A stretch of DNA of 7,989 bases, taken from a virus. Lineage: Duplodnaviria; Heunggongvirae; Uroviricota; Caudoviricetes. The notes below the pieces were generated by a model. The model was given only the letters and a program-made list of their open reading frames with translations, did not search any database and had not been told where the DNA came from. Below are positions 1 to 7,892 of the stretch, piece by piece; position 1 is the first letter of the stretch, and each line of letters starts with the position of its first letter. Made by a program: the position numbers and the translations under genes. Location of the stretch: IMG/VR virus record IMGVR_UViG_3300029878_000067; one strand, written 5' to 3'.

Positions 1-2234
<2,234 letters not shown>

Positions 2235-2291
2235 TCATGCTCCATAAACGACAAAACCGCCCGCAGGCGGTTTCACATAAAACGTTTTTCA

Positions 2292-2471
2292 TCAACGACC
2301 AATCACCACAACCTGACCACCGTCCCCCTCGTCTGCCGTGCTGATCTCCTGAGAAGCCACCCGCGACCCCACGCGCATTTCACCGTACAGAACAGGCAGA
2401 ACATTGCCCTGGGCAACCATGTTATCCAGTGAGGAGAAATAGGTGTTCTGCTTACGCAGCTCTGCTGTCAC
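2292..2471 (-). pseudogene. I: Remnant: first ~6 codons of head protease/scaffold gene C (GTG start at 2471..2469) fused in frame to the C-terminal ~53 codons of tail assembly protein I
   Basis: Seen in sequence: minus-strand reading from GTG gives V/M-TAELR then KQNTYFSSLDNMVAQGNVLPVLYGEMRVGSRVASQEISTADEGDGGQVVVIGR and a stop. Established knowledge: TAELR is the start of lambda gpC and the remainder is the gpI C-terminus. Junction at about 2452 with AA microhomology. The 104-aa ORF in the track (2292..2606) reads out of frame through B sequence for its N-terminal half. Confidence 0.75.
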
Positions 2472-2751: not shown

Positions 2752-3533
2752 ACCCCGTTTTTGTTTCGCTTACGTGGCATGCTGGCCACCGGCTTTCCGT
2801 AGACGGATGCCCCTTTAATGGGGATCACCCGGAACAGCCCATGTTTTTTCGAGCGTTCATACACAATGGTCGGGTCAATCCCGCCAGTATCCCAGCAGAT
2901 ACGGGATACCGACATCTCTGCACCATTCCGGCGGGTATAGGTTTTATTGATGGCCTCATCCACACGCAGCAGCGTCTGTTCATCGTCGTGGCGGCCCATA
3001 ATAATCTGCCGGTCAATCAGCCAGCTTTCCTCACCCGGCCCCCATCCCCATACGCGCATTTCGTAGCGATCCAGCTGGGAGTCGATACCGGCGGTCAGGT
3101 AAGCCACACGGTCAGGAACGGACGCTGAATAATGCTCTTTCCGCTCTGCCATCACTTCAGCATCCGGACGTTCGCCGATTTTCGCTTCCCACGTCTCACC
3201 GAGCGTGGTGTTCACGAAGGTTTTACGTTTTCCCGTAAGGGTGTTGCGCTGCTTATGCTCTATGAAGTAGGCATAAACACCCAGCAGCATTTTGGAATAA
3301 CCGACACGGGCANNNNNNNNNNNNNNNNNNNNNNNNNNNNNNNNNNNNNNNNNNNNNNNNNNNNNNNNNNNNNNNNNNNNNCAGCGCCCTTCCTGGTATG
3401 CGGATTCTTTCGGGAGATAGTAACTGGCATCCGCCCATTCAACGGCAGTCTGTGGCTCCGGCCTGAACAGGGCTCGCAGCCCGGCGCGTACATCACGCCG
3501 CAGAATATCAATCTGACTGTTCGATATATTCAC
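2709..3533 (-). pseudogene. A: Terminase large subunit A remnant: N-terminal ~99 codons joined to a C-terminal nuclease-domain segment, then fused out of frame to the B remnant; contains a 69-nt N-run
   Basis: Seen in sequence: translation [15 protein letters not shown]...ARVGYSKMLLGVYAYFIEHKQRNTL is followed directly by TGKRKTFVNTTLGETWEAKIGERPDAEVMAERKEHYSA...MPRKRNKNGV. Established knowledge: in lambda gpA these two blocks are separated by roughly 300 residues (ATPase-domain region), so there is an internal deletion at about 3236. After KNGV the frame runs into B-derived DNA and stops at 2709. The start overlaps Nu1 by 26 nt as in lambda. Confidence 0.85.
3313..3381. other. Run of 69 ambiguous bases (N): assembly gap or masked segment inside the terminase A remnant
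   Basis: Directly visible in the sequence; appears as X residues in three ORF-track translations. Confidence 0.97.
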
Positions 3534-4053
3534 TCAGCAACCCCGGTATCAGTTCATCCAGCGCGGCTGCTTTGTTCATGGCTTTGATGATATCCCGTTT
3601 CAGGAAATCAACATGTCGGTTTTCCAGTTCCGGAAAACGCCGCTGTACCGAGAGAGGGATCCCGTCAAGAATACTGGCAATTTCACCTGCGATCCGTGAC
3701 AGCACGAAAGTACAGAATGCGGTTTCCACCACCTCTGCGGAGTCTCTGGCATTCTTCAGCTCCTGTGCGTCGGCCTGCGCACGCGTAAGTCGATGGCGTT
3801 CGTACTCAATAGTCCCAGGCTGGAGATCTGCCTCACTGGCAGCCCTGTAATCCACAACCTCTTTACGGAGTTTTTCATTTTCGATATCAGCTTCCCTCTG
3901 CGCATACCACTGAATTGCCATGGCGGTATCAAATACAGATTCAACGCCCTTACCACCTCCGGAGACGCAAGGGAGTCCCTGAGACTGCCAGCGTTCAATC
4001 GTTCGCGGATCCACGTTGAAAATTTCGGCAAGTTTCTTTTTATTAACCTTCAT
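3508..4053 (-). CDS. Nu1: Terminase small subunit Nu1 (181 aa), apparently intact
   Basis: ORF-track protein [36 protein letters not shown]... The C-terminal ~100 residues ([60 protein letters not shown]...LSEYIEQS) match my recollection of lambda gpNu1 nearly exactly; the N-terminal DNA-binding region is similar but diverged. Lies cos-proximal with a 26-nt overlap onto the A start, as in lambda. Confidence 0.9.
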
Positions 4054-4080
4054 GAAACAGTCTCACAATAAATACAGGGG

Positions 4081-4190
4081 CCGACATGAAAGTGCCCGAA
4101 AATGACTTTTTTAGGCGTTTTCATGTCGGACCTTTTACGGATTCGATATTAGAAAAAACAAATAGTTATGTTCGAGAAGTACCGACATGA
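4081..4190 (-). promoter_or_regulatory. cosB: three copies of a CCGACATGA-core repeat (4081..4089 direct, 4121..4129 inverted, 4182..4190 direct) with an AT-rich A-tract spacer (about 4141..4175) between the cosN-proximal pair; candidate Nu1 binding sites R3/R2/R1 with a bend/IHF-type site
   Basis: Seen in sequence: GCCGACATGAAAGTG, TTTTCATGTCGGACC (reverse complement TCCGACATGAAAA) and ACCGACATGATTTTC. Inference: the arrangement resembles the multi-R-site cosB architecture of lambdoid phages; site identity is not lambda-like, consistent with the diverged Nu1 N-terminus. Confidence 0.5.
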
Positions 4191-4229
4191 TTTTCCCCGG
4201 AAAATTTTCATAAATAGCGAAAACCCGCG

Positions 4230-4241
4230 AGGTCGCCGCCC
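4230..4241 (-). other. cosN: cosN 12-nt cohesive-end sequence (GGGCGGCGACCT on the minus strand)
   Basis: Exact 12-mer AGGTCGCCGCCC on the plus strand at 4230..4241, embedded in lambda-like flanks, about 177 bp from the Nu1 start codon (lambda spacing is about 179). Confidence 0.85.
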
Positions 4242-4464
4242 CGTAACCTGTCGGATCGCCGGAAAGGACCCGCCAACGACTTTCGCGTGCAGGCATTAAA
4301 AATTTTGCAGTTCCATGCCTAGTTGAAACCTCGATTTCTATAACATCCAATTTTGTAAATTTAGATATAGCTCAACTTTTCCCAATGTTTTCAAGTGTAT
4401 AAAAACAATTGGCGTTACGCCATAACACTATACTTAGGATAAGTAAAGATTTTAAGGAGTTTTA

Positions 4465-5532
4465 ATGAGTCAACATCAATATTACCCACAGCTGAAATGG
4501 AAGCCTGCTGAATATGAATCTCTGATGCTTTTAGATCAAACTACGCTCTCTGGTTTTACTCCGATCATTACCATTCCAGACATAGACTGGGATTATGAAA
4601 ACGAATGCTACAAGAAGAGTTTGAGTTCTTACTTATCTGACTTCGGTATTAACCTTGCGGCATCCTGGAAAGCCAATCGTCCTGTTTTGCTGGATGTTAA
4701 ATATTTAGATAAACATGGTTCGAGCCGCCATCATCCTCTAGATATGTGTATCCAAGATGCTAGAGTAAATGGTAAGGAAATTATCCCTGTTGTCTCTCCC
4801 GCATATTCAACAAACTATATACATGCTGTTCAACGCAACTTAATCAATGGGCTCGCTATATCTATCACCCCCCAGACATGGCACCAATTCACAAGTCTGG
4901 TTAACCACTTAAATATTCATCCTAGTTTAATTGATGTAATCATTGATTTTGGAGATATTCAAAACGCAACTGATAGTTTAAAACAACAAGCATTAAGCAT
5001 GGTCAACACATTATCAGGCCAAGCTCCGTGGAGAAACTTGATTTTATCTTCAACCGCATACCCTGCATCACAGGCAGGGATACCGCAACATCAAGTTCAT
5101 CATATTCCGCGCCATGAATACGATCTTTGGATGTATGTAGTACAGAATTTTAGCAATGGAAGAACGCCAAGTTTTAGTGATTATCCCACCGCTAGCTCTA
5201 CCATTACGAGCGTAGACCCACGCTTCATGTCTCAGTATGTCTCAGTGAGATATTCGAACGATACCTCATGGATCTTTGTAAAAGGTACCGCAGTTAAAGG
5301 AAATGGATGGGGCCAAACTAAAAACTTATGTACTACCCTTGTTAGTTCGCCAGAGTATCAAGTCTTTGGCTCCAAATTTAGTTGGGGGGATGATTACATT
5401 TACCAAAGATCATTAGGCGCTAACAAATCTGGCGGCTCTAAAGAATGGCGTAAAGTTGCACATACGCACCATATTACGTTAGTCGTGAGACAGCTTTATT
5501 GGTTGGCGCAGACTCAGCCTGCCAAGCCTTAA
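4465..5532 (+). CDS. Hypothetical protein, 355 aa, AT-rich cargo gene; function unknown
   Basis: Seen in sequence: long ORF with a perfect AAGGAG at 4454..4459, 5 nt before the ATG; GC content visibly lower than the flanking phage genes (by eye, not computed); AT-rich upstream region with -10-like hexamers (TATAAA 4398..4403, TATACT 4429..4434). Protein begins MSQHQYYPQLKWKPAEYESL; no nucleotide-binding or catalytic motif that I can assign with confidence. Confidence 0.72.
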   Translation: MSQHQYYPQLKWKPAEYESLMLLDQTTLSGFTPIITIPDIDWDYENECYKKSLSSYLSDFGINLAASWKANRPVLLDVKYLDKHGSSRHHPLDMCIQDARVNGKEIIPVVSPAYSTNYIHAVQRNLINGLAISITPQTWHQFTSLVNHLNIHPSLIDVIIDFGDIQNATDSLKQQALSMVNTLSGQAPWRNLILSSTAYPASQAGIPQHQVHHIPRHEYDLWMYVVQNFSNGRTPSFSDYPTASSTITSVDPRFMSQYVSVRYSNDTSWIFVKGTAVKGNGWGQTKNLCTTLVSSPEYQVFGSKFSWGDDYIYQRSLGANKSGGSKEWRKVAHTHHITLVVRQLYWLAQTQPAKP

Positions 5533-6094
5533 CTTTCCAGCCTACGCGTTTCTTTAAGGCTGTTCTGACTTCAAGCCTGAGATTCGCTATTGGAATATTT
5601 TCCGCAATAATATTCCATAACTCAAATCGGGGCTTGCTTTTGATTCCTTTGGAATAGCCCCATCGTTCAAGTACGTCGATACATTCATCTTTCCAAAGCA
5701 ATTGAGCGAGCATCAATGAGTTATGGTTTCGATTAAGCTTTTCTCCACGCATGTGCTTTATAAGAATGGCGCCTTTTGGCCCAACAGAAACCGTTTTAAC
5801 GCCCCACCAACCTGGGATTAACTTTAATGCTCCCTCAAGATGTTTCTCAGCTACGACAAGAGTAACCTTGTCCATTACAGAAGAATAATGCTTGATTTGA
5901 AGAGGCAAACGCTCCAAAGAGTCATATTCACTTTTGAGCTCGTACCCGTGTATAACACCATTTATTACAGCAATGTCTGCTCTACTGGCGCCAAGGGATA
6001 TGGAAAATTCATCGACCACAAGGCAGTCAGGATCTAAATGCGATTCTTTCAAAAGCTTATGATGCACCGCGAACCTAACATCTTGATCTTTCAT
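5474..6094 (-). CDS. Hypothetical protein, 206 aa, with a PD-(D/E)xK nuclease-like motif; AT-rich cargo gene
   Basis: Seen in sequence: ORF with AAGGAG (plus-strand CTCCTT at 6100..6105) 5 nt before the ATG. Protein contains LVVDEF ... SRADIAVING ... HGYELKSEYD, i.e. an acidic residue, then D, then E-x-K about 11 residues later, in an alternating strand/helix context. Inference: this is the signature of restriction-endonuclease-like folds. Convergent with, and overlapping by 59 nt, the 355-aa gene. Confidence 0.7.
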   Translation of the reverse strand: MKDQDVRFAVHHKLLKESHLDPDCLVVDEFSISLGASRADIAVINGVIHGYELKSEYDSLERLPLQIKHYSSVMDKVTLVVAEKHLEGALKLIPGWWGVKTVSVGPKGAILIKHMRGEKLNRNHNSLMLAQLLWKDECIDVLERWGYSKGIKSKPRFELWNIIAENIPIANLRLEVRTALKKRVGWKVKAWQAESAPTNKAVSRLT

Positions 6095-6122: not shown

Positions 6123-6128
6123 ATTATA
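6123..6128 (-). promoter_or_regulatory. Candidate -10 hexamer (perfect TATAAT on the minus strand) about 30 nt upstream of the 206-aa gene start
   Basis: Plus-strand ATTATA at 6123..6128 is TATAAT on the minus strand; no good -35 match at 16..18 bp spacing; an adjacent tandem repeat occupies the -35 zone. Confidence 0.3.
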
Positions 6129-6132
6129 GCGC

Positions 6133-6151
6133 ACTGCATTTTACTGCATTT
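6133..6151. repeat. Tandem direct repeat ACTGCATTT x2 with 10-bp periodicity, immediately upstream of the candidate -10 of the 206-aa gene
   Basis: Plus strand reads CACTGCATTT TACTGCATTT at 6132..6151; one helical turn apart; located where a -35 element or activator/repressor site would sit. Confidence 0.5.
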
Positions 6152-6445
6152 GAGAGATTTGACCACTTCAATCACAAAATGCTTATCTGCAGCAACAAGA
6201 TTCATAGCCATACGACTATGGTGATTACCTTTTGTCTGGAAAACTGACCATTCCACGAAGATCAGATAGGTCTATAGAATCTTGGTTTGTCATAGCGTTC
6301 GCCTTACTTTGAGATGAACCTTTGCTGCATAGGAGATCAGCCCGTCAAGGCTCACCAGCACTAACTGACTACTCAAAGGCTCATTCCAAAGGGTTTGGTT
6401 CGACGTGGTTGAGTGCGCTGCGGTGCGCGGTGAAATACCTGTACA

Positions 6446-6473
6446 AAAATGCCCCGCATCTGCGAGGCATTTT
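6446..6473 (-). terminator. Terminator-like hairpin about 38 bp downstream of Rz, flanked by an A-run and a T-run (potentially bidirectional)
   Basis: Seen in sequence: AAAAATGCCCCGCATCTGCGAGGCATTTTCC. GCC/GGC and CGC/GCG pair around an ATCT loop with A-T extension; on the minus strand the stem is followed by TTTTTGTAC (5 U), on the plus strand by TTTTCC (4 U). No folding energy was computed. Confidence 0.42.
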
Positions 6474-6510: not shown

Positions 6511-6963
6511 TTATTTTAAGCACTGCGTCCTGATGTACTCCTGCAAGTAGTTAACCTGCGCGGTTATCTTGTCGATTCCACTTCGGAGACGGTAATAATT
6601 GAGTTCAGCATCTGCTGTAAGTCCTGGGCTTTCTCCATTGCCCATGCCGCTGGCTCCGGTCGTTGACTTTGCACAGGTGGCGGCGACTTGCAGGCGCTTA
6701 CGCCCAACAGAAACATCAGCACGTAGACTTTCGATAGTCGCGTTAGCATCAGCAAGCTCCTTTGTGTATCTTGCGTCGAGTTCTGCTACATCACGTTGAC
6801 GCTTCCGCATGTCAGCGATGATGTACGTGGCTTTATCGCGCTGTTCTTTATAGGTAATGGCATTATCACGGTAATGATTAACAGCCCATGACAGGCAGAC
6901 GATGATGCAGATAACCAGAGCATAAATAATCGCGGCGACTCTGCTCACTGATCTATCCCCCAA
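6511..6963 (-). CDS. Rz: Spanin inner-membrane subunit Rz (i-spanin), 150 aa
   Basis: Protein has an N-terminal TM segment [30 protein letters not shown] and a coiled-coil-like remainder; closely resembles remembered lambda Rz; sits immediately downstream of the endolysin with a 19-nt overlap. Confidence 0.85.
6564..6755 (-). CDS. Rz1: Spanin outer-membrane lipoprotein subunit Rz1 (o-spanin), embedded in the +1 frame of Rz
   Basis: ORF entirely inside Rz in another frame; signal-peptide-like N-terminus with lipobox-like VSAC followed by a proline-rich segment [16 protein letters not shown], the typical Rz1 architecture. The true start could be an internal Met. Confidence 0.72.
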
Positions 6964-7478
6964 CAGGCTAATGCGCTTTCCTGGTCACGACGAATAACCT
7001 GTCCATAGCAGTTATTTGAACGTATGCGGCAATCGCGCCCACCATCTTTTATCCACCAGCGAATCGCCTCGCATGCACCTTTACGATCACCGGCATTCAG
7101 CCGCTTATAAAACGTCGACGGGAAACACTTACCGGGGCCAATGTTATAGGGACAGAATGACGCTATACCCGCTTTTTGTGGTTCGGTCAGTGGTACTTTA
7201 ATATTGCGCTCCACCCATGCCAGCGCCTTATCACGCTCAATGGCGTTGACCTGGTCGCATTTTTCCTTCGACAGTTTCATACCGGGAAAAACGGGTTTTC
7301 CATCCACCATCGTGGCACCCCGACAGATGGTCCAGATGCCGGACCCATCGCGGTATGCCGTTGTGTGGTTACCTTCTTTTTCATCCAGAAACTGGTCGAG
7401 AATATCAGGCGCGGGCGCACCGACGGCAATCAGTGCCAGAACGGCAGCCGACAGGCCGTATCTGATTTTTGCGTTCAT
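6945..7478 (-). CDS. R: Endolysin R, T4-lysozyme-type (GH24) muramidase with N-terminal SAR (signal-anchor-release) domain, 177 aa
   Basis: Catalytic-triad spacing E-x8-D-x5-T in [23 protein letters not shown]; Gly/Ala-rich weakly hydrophobic N-terminus [16 protein letters not shown] typical of SAR endolysins; from memory, near-identical to E. coli cryptic-prophage lysozyme RrrQ and similar to phage 21 R. Confidence 0.9.
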
Positions 7479-7541: not shown

Positions 7542-7892
7542 TTAAGGTTGTGATTCCGGAGGAGTCTTCAGAGAACCAGTAATTCTTCCCGGTAGCTTTC
7601 CTTTGTAGGTTATCCATACATTCTGCGCCTCTAAAATTACGGGGCGCTTTTCCGGCGACTGCTCATCCCCTTCACATAACCCGGCAGCAACATCCAGGAA
7701 GACCTGTCTGATGCTCATTCTGGCTGCTGCCTCATAAAACTCCAGCGCGGCACCTTCAACACGGTCCAGCGAGATGTCCAGGTCAAAAATTTCACCGTCA
7801 AAGCGTTTTTTGTCCCGTAACGCTAAAGTTACCGTAACTTTATTCTCAAAATTGCGGATCCCTTTCACAATCAGTTCATAGTTTTGAGTCAT
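7542..7892 (-). CDS. Small phage protein of unknown function between holin and endolysin (YdfR/DUF1327-like, assignment from memory), 116 aa
   Basis: ORF with start ATG at 7892..7890, 5 nt after the holin stop; its position between the S and R homologs mirrors the essQ-ydfR-rrrQ order of the E. coli Qin prophage as I recall it. No motif verified. Confidence 0.55.
   Translation of the reverse strand: MTQNYELIVKGIRNFENKVTVTLALRDKKRFDGEIFDLDISLDRVEGAALEFYEAAARMSIRQVFLDVAAGLCEGDEQSPEKRPVILEAQNVWITYKGKLPGRITGSLKTPPESQP

Follow-up and report, generated by a model that had tools for sequence, protein, structure and literature searches.

A 59-nt convergent overlap of two prophage cargo genes, probably the local form of an inherited family-wide tail-to-tail architecture

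A window of 7,989 nucleotides (nt), the whole stretch of viral DNA that was analysed (Caudoviricetes; IMG/VR record IMGVR_UViG_3300029878_000067), carries two cargo genes that converge and share their 3′ ends: a beta-family gene and a sce7726-family gene that resembles cII of phage P4. The overlap is probably the local form of a tail-to-tail architecture that has been inherited throughout the family of such gene pairs, and the convergence itself would couple the expression of the two genes. For the 59-nt stretch as such the outcome is deflationary, as its length is incidental. The elements in question are the following (aa, amino acids; ORF, open reading frame).

4465..5532, + strand: beta-family gene of the ORF list, 355 aa, with an ATG start and a TAA stop at 5530-5532
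5474..6094, - strand: sce7726-family (cII-like) gene, 206 aa, with an ATG start; the TTA at 5474-5476 reads TAA on the - strand
5474..5532, both strands: tail-to-tail overlap of 59 nt, with beta codons 336-355 inside it

The first-pass annotation had placed the two stops at 5532 (+) and 5474 (-), had concluded that no terminator fits between the genes, and had pointed out that each transcript must be antisense to the other's 3′ end. The ORF list, the sequence and the PGAP annotation bear out the overlap; PGAP gives the identical gene pair with the identical overlap in Escherichia coli WP5-S17-ESBL-10 (NZ_AP022105.1) and in four further E. coli genomes. Within the overlap, codon position 1 of one gene lies opposite position 1 of the other, and position 2 opposite position 3. 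The plus strand encodes the end of the C-terminal helix of beta, and the minus strand encodes the disordered tail of the cII-like protein. The same 59-nt overlap is present in 41 of 41 E. coli-type copies from metagenome and viral contigs, which excludes sequencing error, and as a convergent overlap is set by stop codons, ambiguity of start codons is irrelevant to it. Two E. coli-type copies (one of them L097) carry a variant in the overlap that alters both proteins, AWQAESAP to AWQDESAP in the cII-like protein and QTQPAKP to QTHPAKP in beta; we take the double change to be one substitution, and it illustrates the dual-coding cost of the overlap.

An earlier end for one of the ORFs after a sequencing correction was a refuting case that the first-pass annotation had itself foreseen; over-extended annotation would have the same effect, and such errors are common: 124 of 178 convergent overlaps that exceeded 60 base pairs (bp) were found to be 3′-extension misannotations (PMC2478687), and the cII-like tail is indeed an extension relative to its orthologues. 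Here, however, the ends are set by stop codons, the sequence is the same in all 41 contigs and in the complete genomes checked, and the ancestral stop position would still leave an overlap of 11 nt. No such correction is seen, and the overlap as an artefact is essentially refuted.

The product of the plus-strand gene belongs to the Beta_protein family PF14350 (190.4 bits against a gathering threshold of 27, E 8e-56, model positions 1-342 of 342), and it also matches the PADLOC models 'beta' (E 3.5e-10) and PD-Lambda-2_C (E 4e-32). It is a homologue of P4 beta, likewise a member of PF14350, at an identity of only ~22%. Its predicted structure is a TIM barrel with a long, confidently modelled C-terminal helix (residues 325-350). 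The minus-strand product is a member of the sce7726 family NF033832 (183.7 bits against a curated cut-off of 70, E 3e-54, model positions 1-182 of 184), a model that also names P4 cII in NC_001609. The protein matches the PADLOC model 'cll' (E 3e-31) and, by tblastn, P4 cII itself (E 5e-12), with an identity of ~26%. Confident structure prediction and fold comparison give it a PD-(D/E)XK restriction-endonuclease-like fold with invariant D40, E52 and K54; this modelled fold together with the conserved acidic...(D/E)xK motif places it in the PD-(D/E)XK nuclease superfamily. The conserved domain ends at about W186-K187, and residues 188-206 form a non-conserved tail with a predicted local distance difference test score (pLDDT) below 50. 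Searches by sequence found no relatives of solved structure for beta or for the cII-like protein, and the folds were assigned by fold comparison.

Related loci were drawn from species-representative genomes, one genome per species, with two peptide patterns taken from an alignment of sce7726 proteins. The 80 genome loci retained are the best 80 of 463 confirmed hits, and iterative profiles, made from the loci themselves, served to locate both genes in them. The loci stem from Enterobacterales, Vibrionaceae, Alpha-, Beta- and Deltaproteobacteria, Myxococcota, Firmicutes, Acidobacteriota, Elusimicrobiota, Melainabacteria, the candidate phyla radiation and others. The two-gene loci counted number 81, including the window, its E. 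coli twin, P4, Rac-SA53 and one Gordonia phage; these loci are related by descent, and the counts are not counts of independent events. The genes converge in all 81 and overlap in 78, by 11-158 nt with a median of 56. Each of the 78 overlaps has a length of 2 modulo 3, so that codon position 1 is always opposite position 1. When only distinct sequences are counted, 74 of 74 loci are convergent and 71 overlap, in one phase throughout.

The first-pass annotation had suggested examining homologous loci for conservation of the overlap, and had regarded homologues with separated ends and intervening terminators as evidence to the contrary. Conservation holds family-wide, in 71 of the 74 distinct loci. 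Separated ends are found in a part of the family only: P4 has a 27-nt gap with a terminator, and other gaps, of 14-39 nt, occur in a subclade. Seven assemblies (L028-L034, assigned to Bradyrhizobium, Afipia and a 'Bordetella parapertussis MAG') carry a byte-identical cassette with byte-identical flanks; a single organism, or a common contaminant, seems to have been assembled several times over, and the seven were counted once in the distinct totals.

The conservation extends to the register of the two proteins. The two domain models share exactly 8 nt at their ends in 53 loci, and 5 nt in 13. Facing the cII motif LK.R..WR is the end of the beta helix, ..NHH.T.VV.QLA.L.., and the beta stop usually falls within the invariant Leu-Lys codons of cII, while the invariant Trp codon of cII pairs with an Ala or Ser codon of beta. 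Across 60 distinct canonical loci, a core of 36 nt shows low entropy whichever codon phase is considered (1.09-1.23 bits). On either side, where a single gene is encoded, the wobble position is free, at 1.88 bits in the cII-only zone and 1.87 bits in the beta-only zone. Low entropy in all three phases is the mark expected of selection on both reading frames, and the core is therefore taken to be under such selection.

The tails beyond the core have a median of 6 codons for cII and 5 codons for beta, and a tail of at least the observed length has a mean probability of 0.63 (cII) and 0.70 (beta), where chance would give 0.515; the tails are thus somewhat shorter than chance. Selection for long overlaps was considered and rejected, as the tails fall below the geometric expectation. 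The antisense frame of the partner offers a stop about once per 17 codons, and a 19-codon tail such as that at the window locus has a probability of ~0.18. The length of 59 nt is no more than is expected by chance, unlike the convergent, same-phase arrangement.

The particular length in the window is accounted for by two departures from the canonical form. The window beta is 22-31% identical to canonical betas, and the cII-like protein shares ~40-55% identity with the family. The window groups with loci from Edwardsiella, Klebsiella, Pantoea, Pectobacterium, Xenorhabdus and Photobacterium. In this subclade the domain ends lie 32-72 nt apart and are not interlocked; the window and its nearest relatives have 42 extra nt, in frame. 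Canonical family members have the codon equivalent to W186 of the cII-like protein interlocked with the QLA codons of beta, and it is because the ~42 extra nt part the two domain ends that the W186 codon falls outside beta in the window. Two codons mark these departures.

5537..5539, - strand: TGG codon of the near-invariant W186, which closes the conserved motif LK.R..W[RK]; just outside beta in the window
5522..5524, - strand: TGG codon (W191) of the cII-like gene; anchored views of DNA and translation show a stop (TAG or TGA) in its place in Edwardsiella, Klebsiella, Pantoea and Pectobacterium

The nearest relatives from other genera have an overlap of 11 nt, equivalent to 5522-5532 in the window, and in these the cII C-terminus reads ...W-K-x-[K/R]-[A/V]-stop. 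The overlap is 59 nt in the window because the stop of the relatives is TGG at 5522-5524, and the ORF runs 16 codons on to the TAA at 5474-5476. Across the subclade there are gaps of 39 and 14 nt, an 11-nt overlap that is shared by 4 genome loci and by 17 of metagenome or viral origin, an overlap of 18 nt once, and the 59 nt of the E. coli type. A 59-nt overlap has also arisen independently in a third group of the subclade, with an unrelated tail, and a Cronobacter protein (P0002) has a separate extension at the same site as the window tail. Comparison of these sequences indicates that the length of 59 nt is an incidental outcome of a stop-codon difference and was not tuned. The 16 added residues, to judge from the structural model, are probably disordered and functionless.

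The first-pass annotation had read the overlap as the mark of a tightly balanced effector/partner or toxin/antidote pair. An adaptive function of the 59-nt overlap as such, namely that of an antisense module keeping toxin and antidote in balance, would agree with fixation of the overlap in all E. coli copies examined, and an effector role would be in keeping with the nuclease fold of the cII-like protein. P4 beta is moreover reported, in a statement that cites Ghisotti 1990, to neutralise toxic Gop (PMC9122126). Yet close relatives overlap by 11 or 18 nt and gaps occur in the wider subclade; a single stop-to-Trp difference accounts for the length, and the tail is not conserved, so that the length is not a tuned feature. 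Both cargo genes are present in 127 of 5,426 complete E. coli genomes each, where they co-occur at identities of at least 99%, and the fixation of 59 nt therefore reflects recent common descent. One strain that carries the cassette is E. coli 55989 (NC_011748, ~1,430,726-1,432,355).

The toxin/antidote reading is also weakened, in one direction. In E. coli, beta is disrupted by the insertion sequence (IS) IS1 in NZ_CP042892 and NZ_CM129638, at two different sites, and by IS5 in NZ_CM128593; it is frameshifted in another genome (H142) and truncated in a further one (H144). The sce7726 gene is intact and full length in every genome with a disrupted beta, and disruption of the nuclease gene was seen in none of the 127 E. 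coli genomes. In a classical two-gene toxin-antitoxin system the antidote is not lost while the toxin is intact; here beta is lost beside an intact nuclease gene, which argues against beta as an essential antidote. The reverse polarity, in which beta would be the toxic partner, may still hold. The gop gene, whose product is the toxin neutralised in P4, has no homologue here. Altogether, an adaptive role for these particular 59 nt is unlikely. An enrichment of insertions in beta over cII is no more than suggestive: there are at least five disruptions against none, with P ~0.1 given the target sizes. The imbalance, not statistically significant, suggests that beta may be the costly partner. In NZ_CP115370 an IS2 element lies just upstream of beta. 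The P4 Gop protein (247-648 of the P4 locus) matches no Pfam family and bears, close to the N-terminus, two hydrophobic segments that are probably transmembrane, features that are consistent with a small membrane toxin.

A terminator scan predicts no intrinsic terminator in 5400-5650, which agrees with the statement that an intergenic terminator has no room. Folding of the junction is no better than that of shuffled sequence on either strand (z -0.9 and +0.2); across 60 loci the mean folding z is ~0 and the consensus structure is empty. A terminator-like site stands at the junction in 1 of 74 distinct loci, and this is P4, with a 13-bp hairpin and a U-run in its 27-nt gap. Rfam gives no significant match in the region, with two sub-threshold microRNA-model matches at an inverted repeat (4074-4138) near the cohesive-end (cos) site. 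With no terminator at the junction, antisense complementarity at the 3′ ends is unavoidable, and as the first-pass annotation had held, each messenger RNA (mRNA) carries at least 59 nt that are complementary to the other. A cryptic bidirectional terminator, or another RNA element within the coding overlap that ends both transcripts at a defined point, might be expected from the report that collision-driven termination needs a stem-loop (bioRxiv 10.1101/2022.10.23.513370) and from the strong hairpin at the P4 junction. The GC-rich hairpin flanked by A/T tracts that would mark a shared bidirectional intrinsic terminator is absent at the gene ends, and the empty scan, the folding scores in the window and over the 60 loci, the 1 of 74 junctions and the Rfam result all make such an element very improbable.

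The predicted signals around the pair are listed below; those upstream of beta are sequence matches only and the promoter-like elements upstream of the cII-like gene are consensus matches only.

4429-4434, + strand: -10-like TATACT upstream of the beta ATG at 4465
4454-4459, + strand: strong Shine-Dalgarno match AAGGAG upstream of the beta ATG at 4465
6165..6138, - strand: promoter-like TGGTCA-16-TAAAAT, a scan match upstream of the cII-like gene
6128..6123, - strand: perfect TATAAT upstream of the cII-like gene
5′ of the ATG at 6094, - strand: strong Shine-Dalgarno sequence GGAGGGAGTAAGGAG, the predicted ribosome-binding site of the cII-like gene
6150-6143 and 6140-6133, - strand: direct repeat AATGCAGT, two copies 10 nt apart, overlapping the promoter-like elements of the cII-like gene
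4410..4422, - strand: terminator-like hairpin TGGCGTAACGCCA followed by a T-rich run, just past the 5′ end of beta; the first intrinsic-terminator-like site for a transcript in the cII sense

The arrangement of the DNA fits convergent units with complementary 3′ ends, and the promoter matches are weak. The direct repeat AATGCAGT may be an operator for some regulator. In the other loci, terminator-like sites just beyond the start of beta, at 0.61 per kb, show no enrichment over the 0.69 per kb found upstream of cII.

These observations are best explained, we think, by an inherited architecture of which the window holds one form. The cassette consists of genes for a predicted TIM-barrel protein (beta, PF14350) and a cII/sce7726-type protein of PD-(D/E)XK nuclease fold, built tail to tail, and in most members the last conserved codons of both proteins are read from opposite strands of shared DNA. 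Genes whose ends interlock in this way could be parted or turned round only by way of a duplication; nor would a terminator fit between them. Beyond the shared core each ORF would continue into the antisense of its partner as far as the first stop, from which the spread of overlap lengths (11-158 nt) would follow. In the subclade of the window, the ~42 extra nt would have pulled the conserved ends apart and left the overlap labile, from a 39-nt gap to a 59-nt overlap, and a stop codon lost on the way to the E. coli type would have lengthened an 11-nt overlap to 59 nt. If each gene is read from its own promoter toward its partner, polymerases would converge, and the mRNAs would be complementary at their 3′ ends over at least 59 nt, and over more if termination is Rho-dependent. 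Transcriptional interference, duplex-dependent decay or both could then give a reciprocal negative coupling that helps to set the ratio of the two proteins. Such coupling would stem from the convergent, terminator-less design and not from the particular 59 nt. On this evidence a regulatory coupling of the two genes is plausible.

Several points weigh against this interpretation. The plus-strand promoter of beta is unconvincing: no good -35 element was found upstream of beta, and the promoter scan gave no plus-strand promoter upstream of 4465. The promoters, the 3′ ends and any interference are predictions from sequence. Conservation of the interlock could be purely passive, since it is hard to undo by mutation, and would then involve no selection for coupling. 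Three lineages have separated the genes, P4 with a terminator between them, so that coupling through the overlap is dispensable at least there. Solitary, distant sce7726-like genes occur in Bacillus phages and in Myxococcus phage Mx4, and more distant members of the family beyond the best 80 may differ. In a Xenorhabdus locus (L013), beta is absent altogether.

The passive case can be put more fully: a one-time interlock, inherited or transferred as a unit, would persist because separation needs rare duplication, and would have no mutual effect on expression, with Rho or decay bringing each transcript to an end shortly beyond its stop. Much of the evidence is compatible with such a frozen accident, including the highly variable overlap lengths, tails shorter than chance, the disordered and non-conserved tail in the window, and the lack of conserved RNA structure at the junction. 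Non-overlapping lineages exist in which both genes are kept, and the phase is the one most commonly reported among natural convergent overlaps other than those of 4 nt. On the other side, all 81 loci keep the two genes adjacent and in one orientation, those with separated ends included, and without a terminator polymerases from two active promoters must meet, which makes some interference hard to avoid. We regard an entirely neutral interlock as possible but somewhat doubtful, and prefer an inherited architecture with convergent coupling.

The nearest known relative of the cassette is the gop-beta-cII system of P4 (listed as 'Gop_beta_cll'), in the order gop (+), beta (+), cII (-). The two share homologous beta and cII genes in the same convergent, tail-to-tail order, and both lie beside cos as accessory genes of a mobile phage element. 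The P4 genes differ in that they do not overlap, being separated by the 27-nt gap, which holds an annotated rho-independent terminator for cII, and in that P4 cII has ~80 extra C-terminal residues. A mutant of the P4 cII terminator is said to be temperature-sensitive, reportedly through defective beta expression; this would be direct evidence that read-through antisense to beta has consequences, and would count against a neutral interlock. Of the three P4 components, the window has beta and a convergent cII and lacks a gop upstream of beta: tblastn with P4 Gop gives a best E of 4.4 in the window, and 4054-4464 holds no plus-strand ORF that reaches 50 aa. The 80 genome loci lack a gop homologue as well, and among all the loci fetched gop is found only in P4 records. 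The gop-less two-gene cassette is, by this comparison of sequences, the widespread form, and the three-gene version of P4 is an exception within the family. With the P4 trio, E. coli is protected from lambda and P1 (Rousset et al. 2022, PMC9122126), which was shown for the three-gene system only.

A second link is to PD-lambda-2 (Vassallo et al. 2022, PMC9519451), the third component of which is a beta-type protein that is required for defence. A gene for a protein of ~400-470 aa lies directly upstream of beta, on the same strand, in 11 loci of the family (L048, L057, L064, L065, L068, L075, L076, L077, L079, L082 and L083). Its product has an N-terminal HigA/Xre-like helix-turn-helix (HTH) region and an ImmA/IrrE Peptidase_M78 domain with an HEXXH motif, the architecture of PD-lambda-2B, and this links the two systems. 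Apart from this gene, no conserved third gene was found across the family. The window differs from PD-lambda-2 in having neither a HigB-like gene nor an HTH-peptidase gene, and the paper describes no sce7726 partner (PMC9519451).

Convergent 3′ overlap as a geometry is familiar from other settings. In the type I toxin-antitoxin loci txpA/RatA and bsrG/SR4 of Bacillus subtilis, convergent RNAs are complementary at their 3′ ends, and the duplex leads to RNase III decay that sets the level of one product. The likeness is one of geometry only; those loci pair a non-coding antisense RNA with a small membrane peptide toxin, whereas both partners in the cassette are conserved protein-coding genes. 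At closely apposed convergent gene pairs of E. coli, head-on polymerase collisions contribute to termination and a stem-loop positions them (Wang et al., bioRxiv 10.1101/2022.10.23.513370); a stem-loop lies between the gene boundaries there, and none is present at the window junction. In a survey of prokaryotic gene overlaps, convergent ones made up 7%, and the 54 credible long ones that remained were mostly conserved among very close species only (Palleja et al. 2008, PMC2478687). The present overlap resembles these in being defined by stop codons, in having the commonest phase and in having arisen or lengthened by stop loss, but this pair keeps its register across phyla, at identities to the window proteins of ~22-30% for beta and ~40-55% for cII.

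Both gene families are already known, as are the P4 relatives (sequenced in 1990), the defence activity of P4 (2022) and the convergent layout in P4. Within the limits of the searchable literature, no description was found of an overlap locked in register across the family, or of the gop-less form as the predominant one; searches for 'PF14350' or 'Gop_beta_cll' gave no matches in the literature searched, and 'sce7726' appears in passing in genome reports only. The survey adds a stop-defined convergent overlap of fixed register, with co-encoded conserved C-termini, as an architectural signature of the cassette. The cassette is thereby a rare, well-documented case of a convergent overlap conserved beyond close species, and offers a simple test bed for the question whether such an overlap regulates a defence module.

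There is also a bearing on annotation, in that the overlap should not be 'corrected'. In Gordonia phage Powerball an overlap of this kind, convergent and 89 nt long, is annotated beside the integrase. In the record of Gordonia phage DumpsterDude (MT024859; locus positions 2932-3633) the sce7726-family gene is unannotated and an opposite-strand ORF of 216 nt (gene 32) is called instead; the true gene shares 89 nt with gene 33 (beta), as it does in the annotation of the related phage Powerball. Phage records such as that of DumpsterDude, which lack the sce7726 gene, are mis-annotated.

A more far-reaching possibility, which we consider quite unlikely, is that the interlocked convergent design acts as a sensor of transcription state and so is a working part of an immune system. 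In uninfected cells, Rho and polymerase collisions would limit the antisense tails and keep the ratio of TIM-barrel protein to nuclease at a safe value. A phage that alters termination or host transcription (lambda N or Q antitermination, the Rho inhibitor Psu of P4, host shut-off) would cause read-through across the partner gene, and this would collapse the ratio and release the effector. If true, a protein-protein defence pair would be held under mutual antisense control of its mRNAs, and there would be a reason for the overlap to be kept across phyla.

The minus strand of the window is a lambdoid late region, with a DUF1327/YdfR gene at 7542-7892, lysozyme at 6945-7478, Rz at 6511-6963 and Nu1 at 3508-4053. 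The sequence AGGTCGCCGCCC at 4230-4241 is the lambda cohesive-end (cos) sequence, and the cargo pair occupies the position of bor in lambda. The interval from Rz to cos, which houses both cargo genes, is low in GC, at ~0.38-0.44 where the flanks have 0.5-0.6. Since the cII-like gene shares its strand with the late operon, to which beta is antisense, late transcription antiterminated by Q would favour the nuclease and work against beta. A further hairpin lies at the upstream border of the cargo.

6443-6468, - strand: terminator-like hairpin GCCTCGC-AGAT-GCGGGGC and then ATTTTTGT; closely downstream of Rz, ahead of the cargo promoter; not listed by the consensus scan

Judged by its sequence and position, this hairpin would insulate the cargo from upstream read-through in the lysogen. 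When the window is compared with the intact copy in NZ_AP022105.1 (a 12.4-kb stretch, L001), the large-terminase/portal region has two internal deletions (L001 3389-4127 and 1015-2900), and window positions 1-2451 have no match at all to that stretch; a masked run of N at 3313-3381 lies inside the terminase gene. The prophage is degraded, with decaying packaging genes and retained cargo genes. Between the start of Nu1 and cos there is a long inverted repeat, CCGACATGAAA...TTTCATGTCGG, at 4074-4138, which is probably part of the cos/terminase-binding region.

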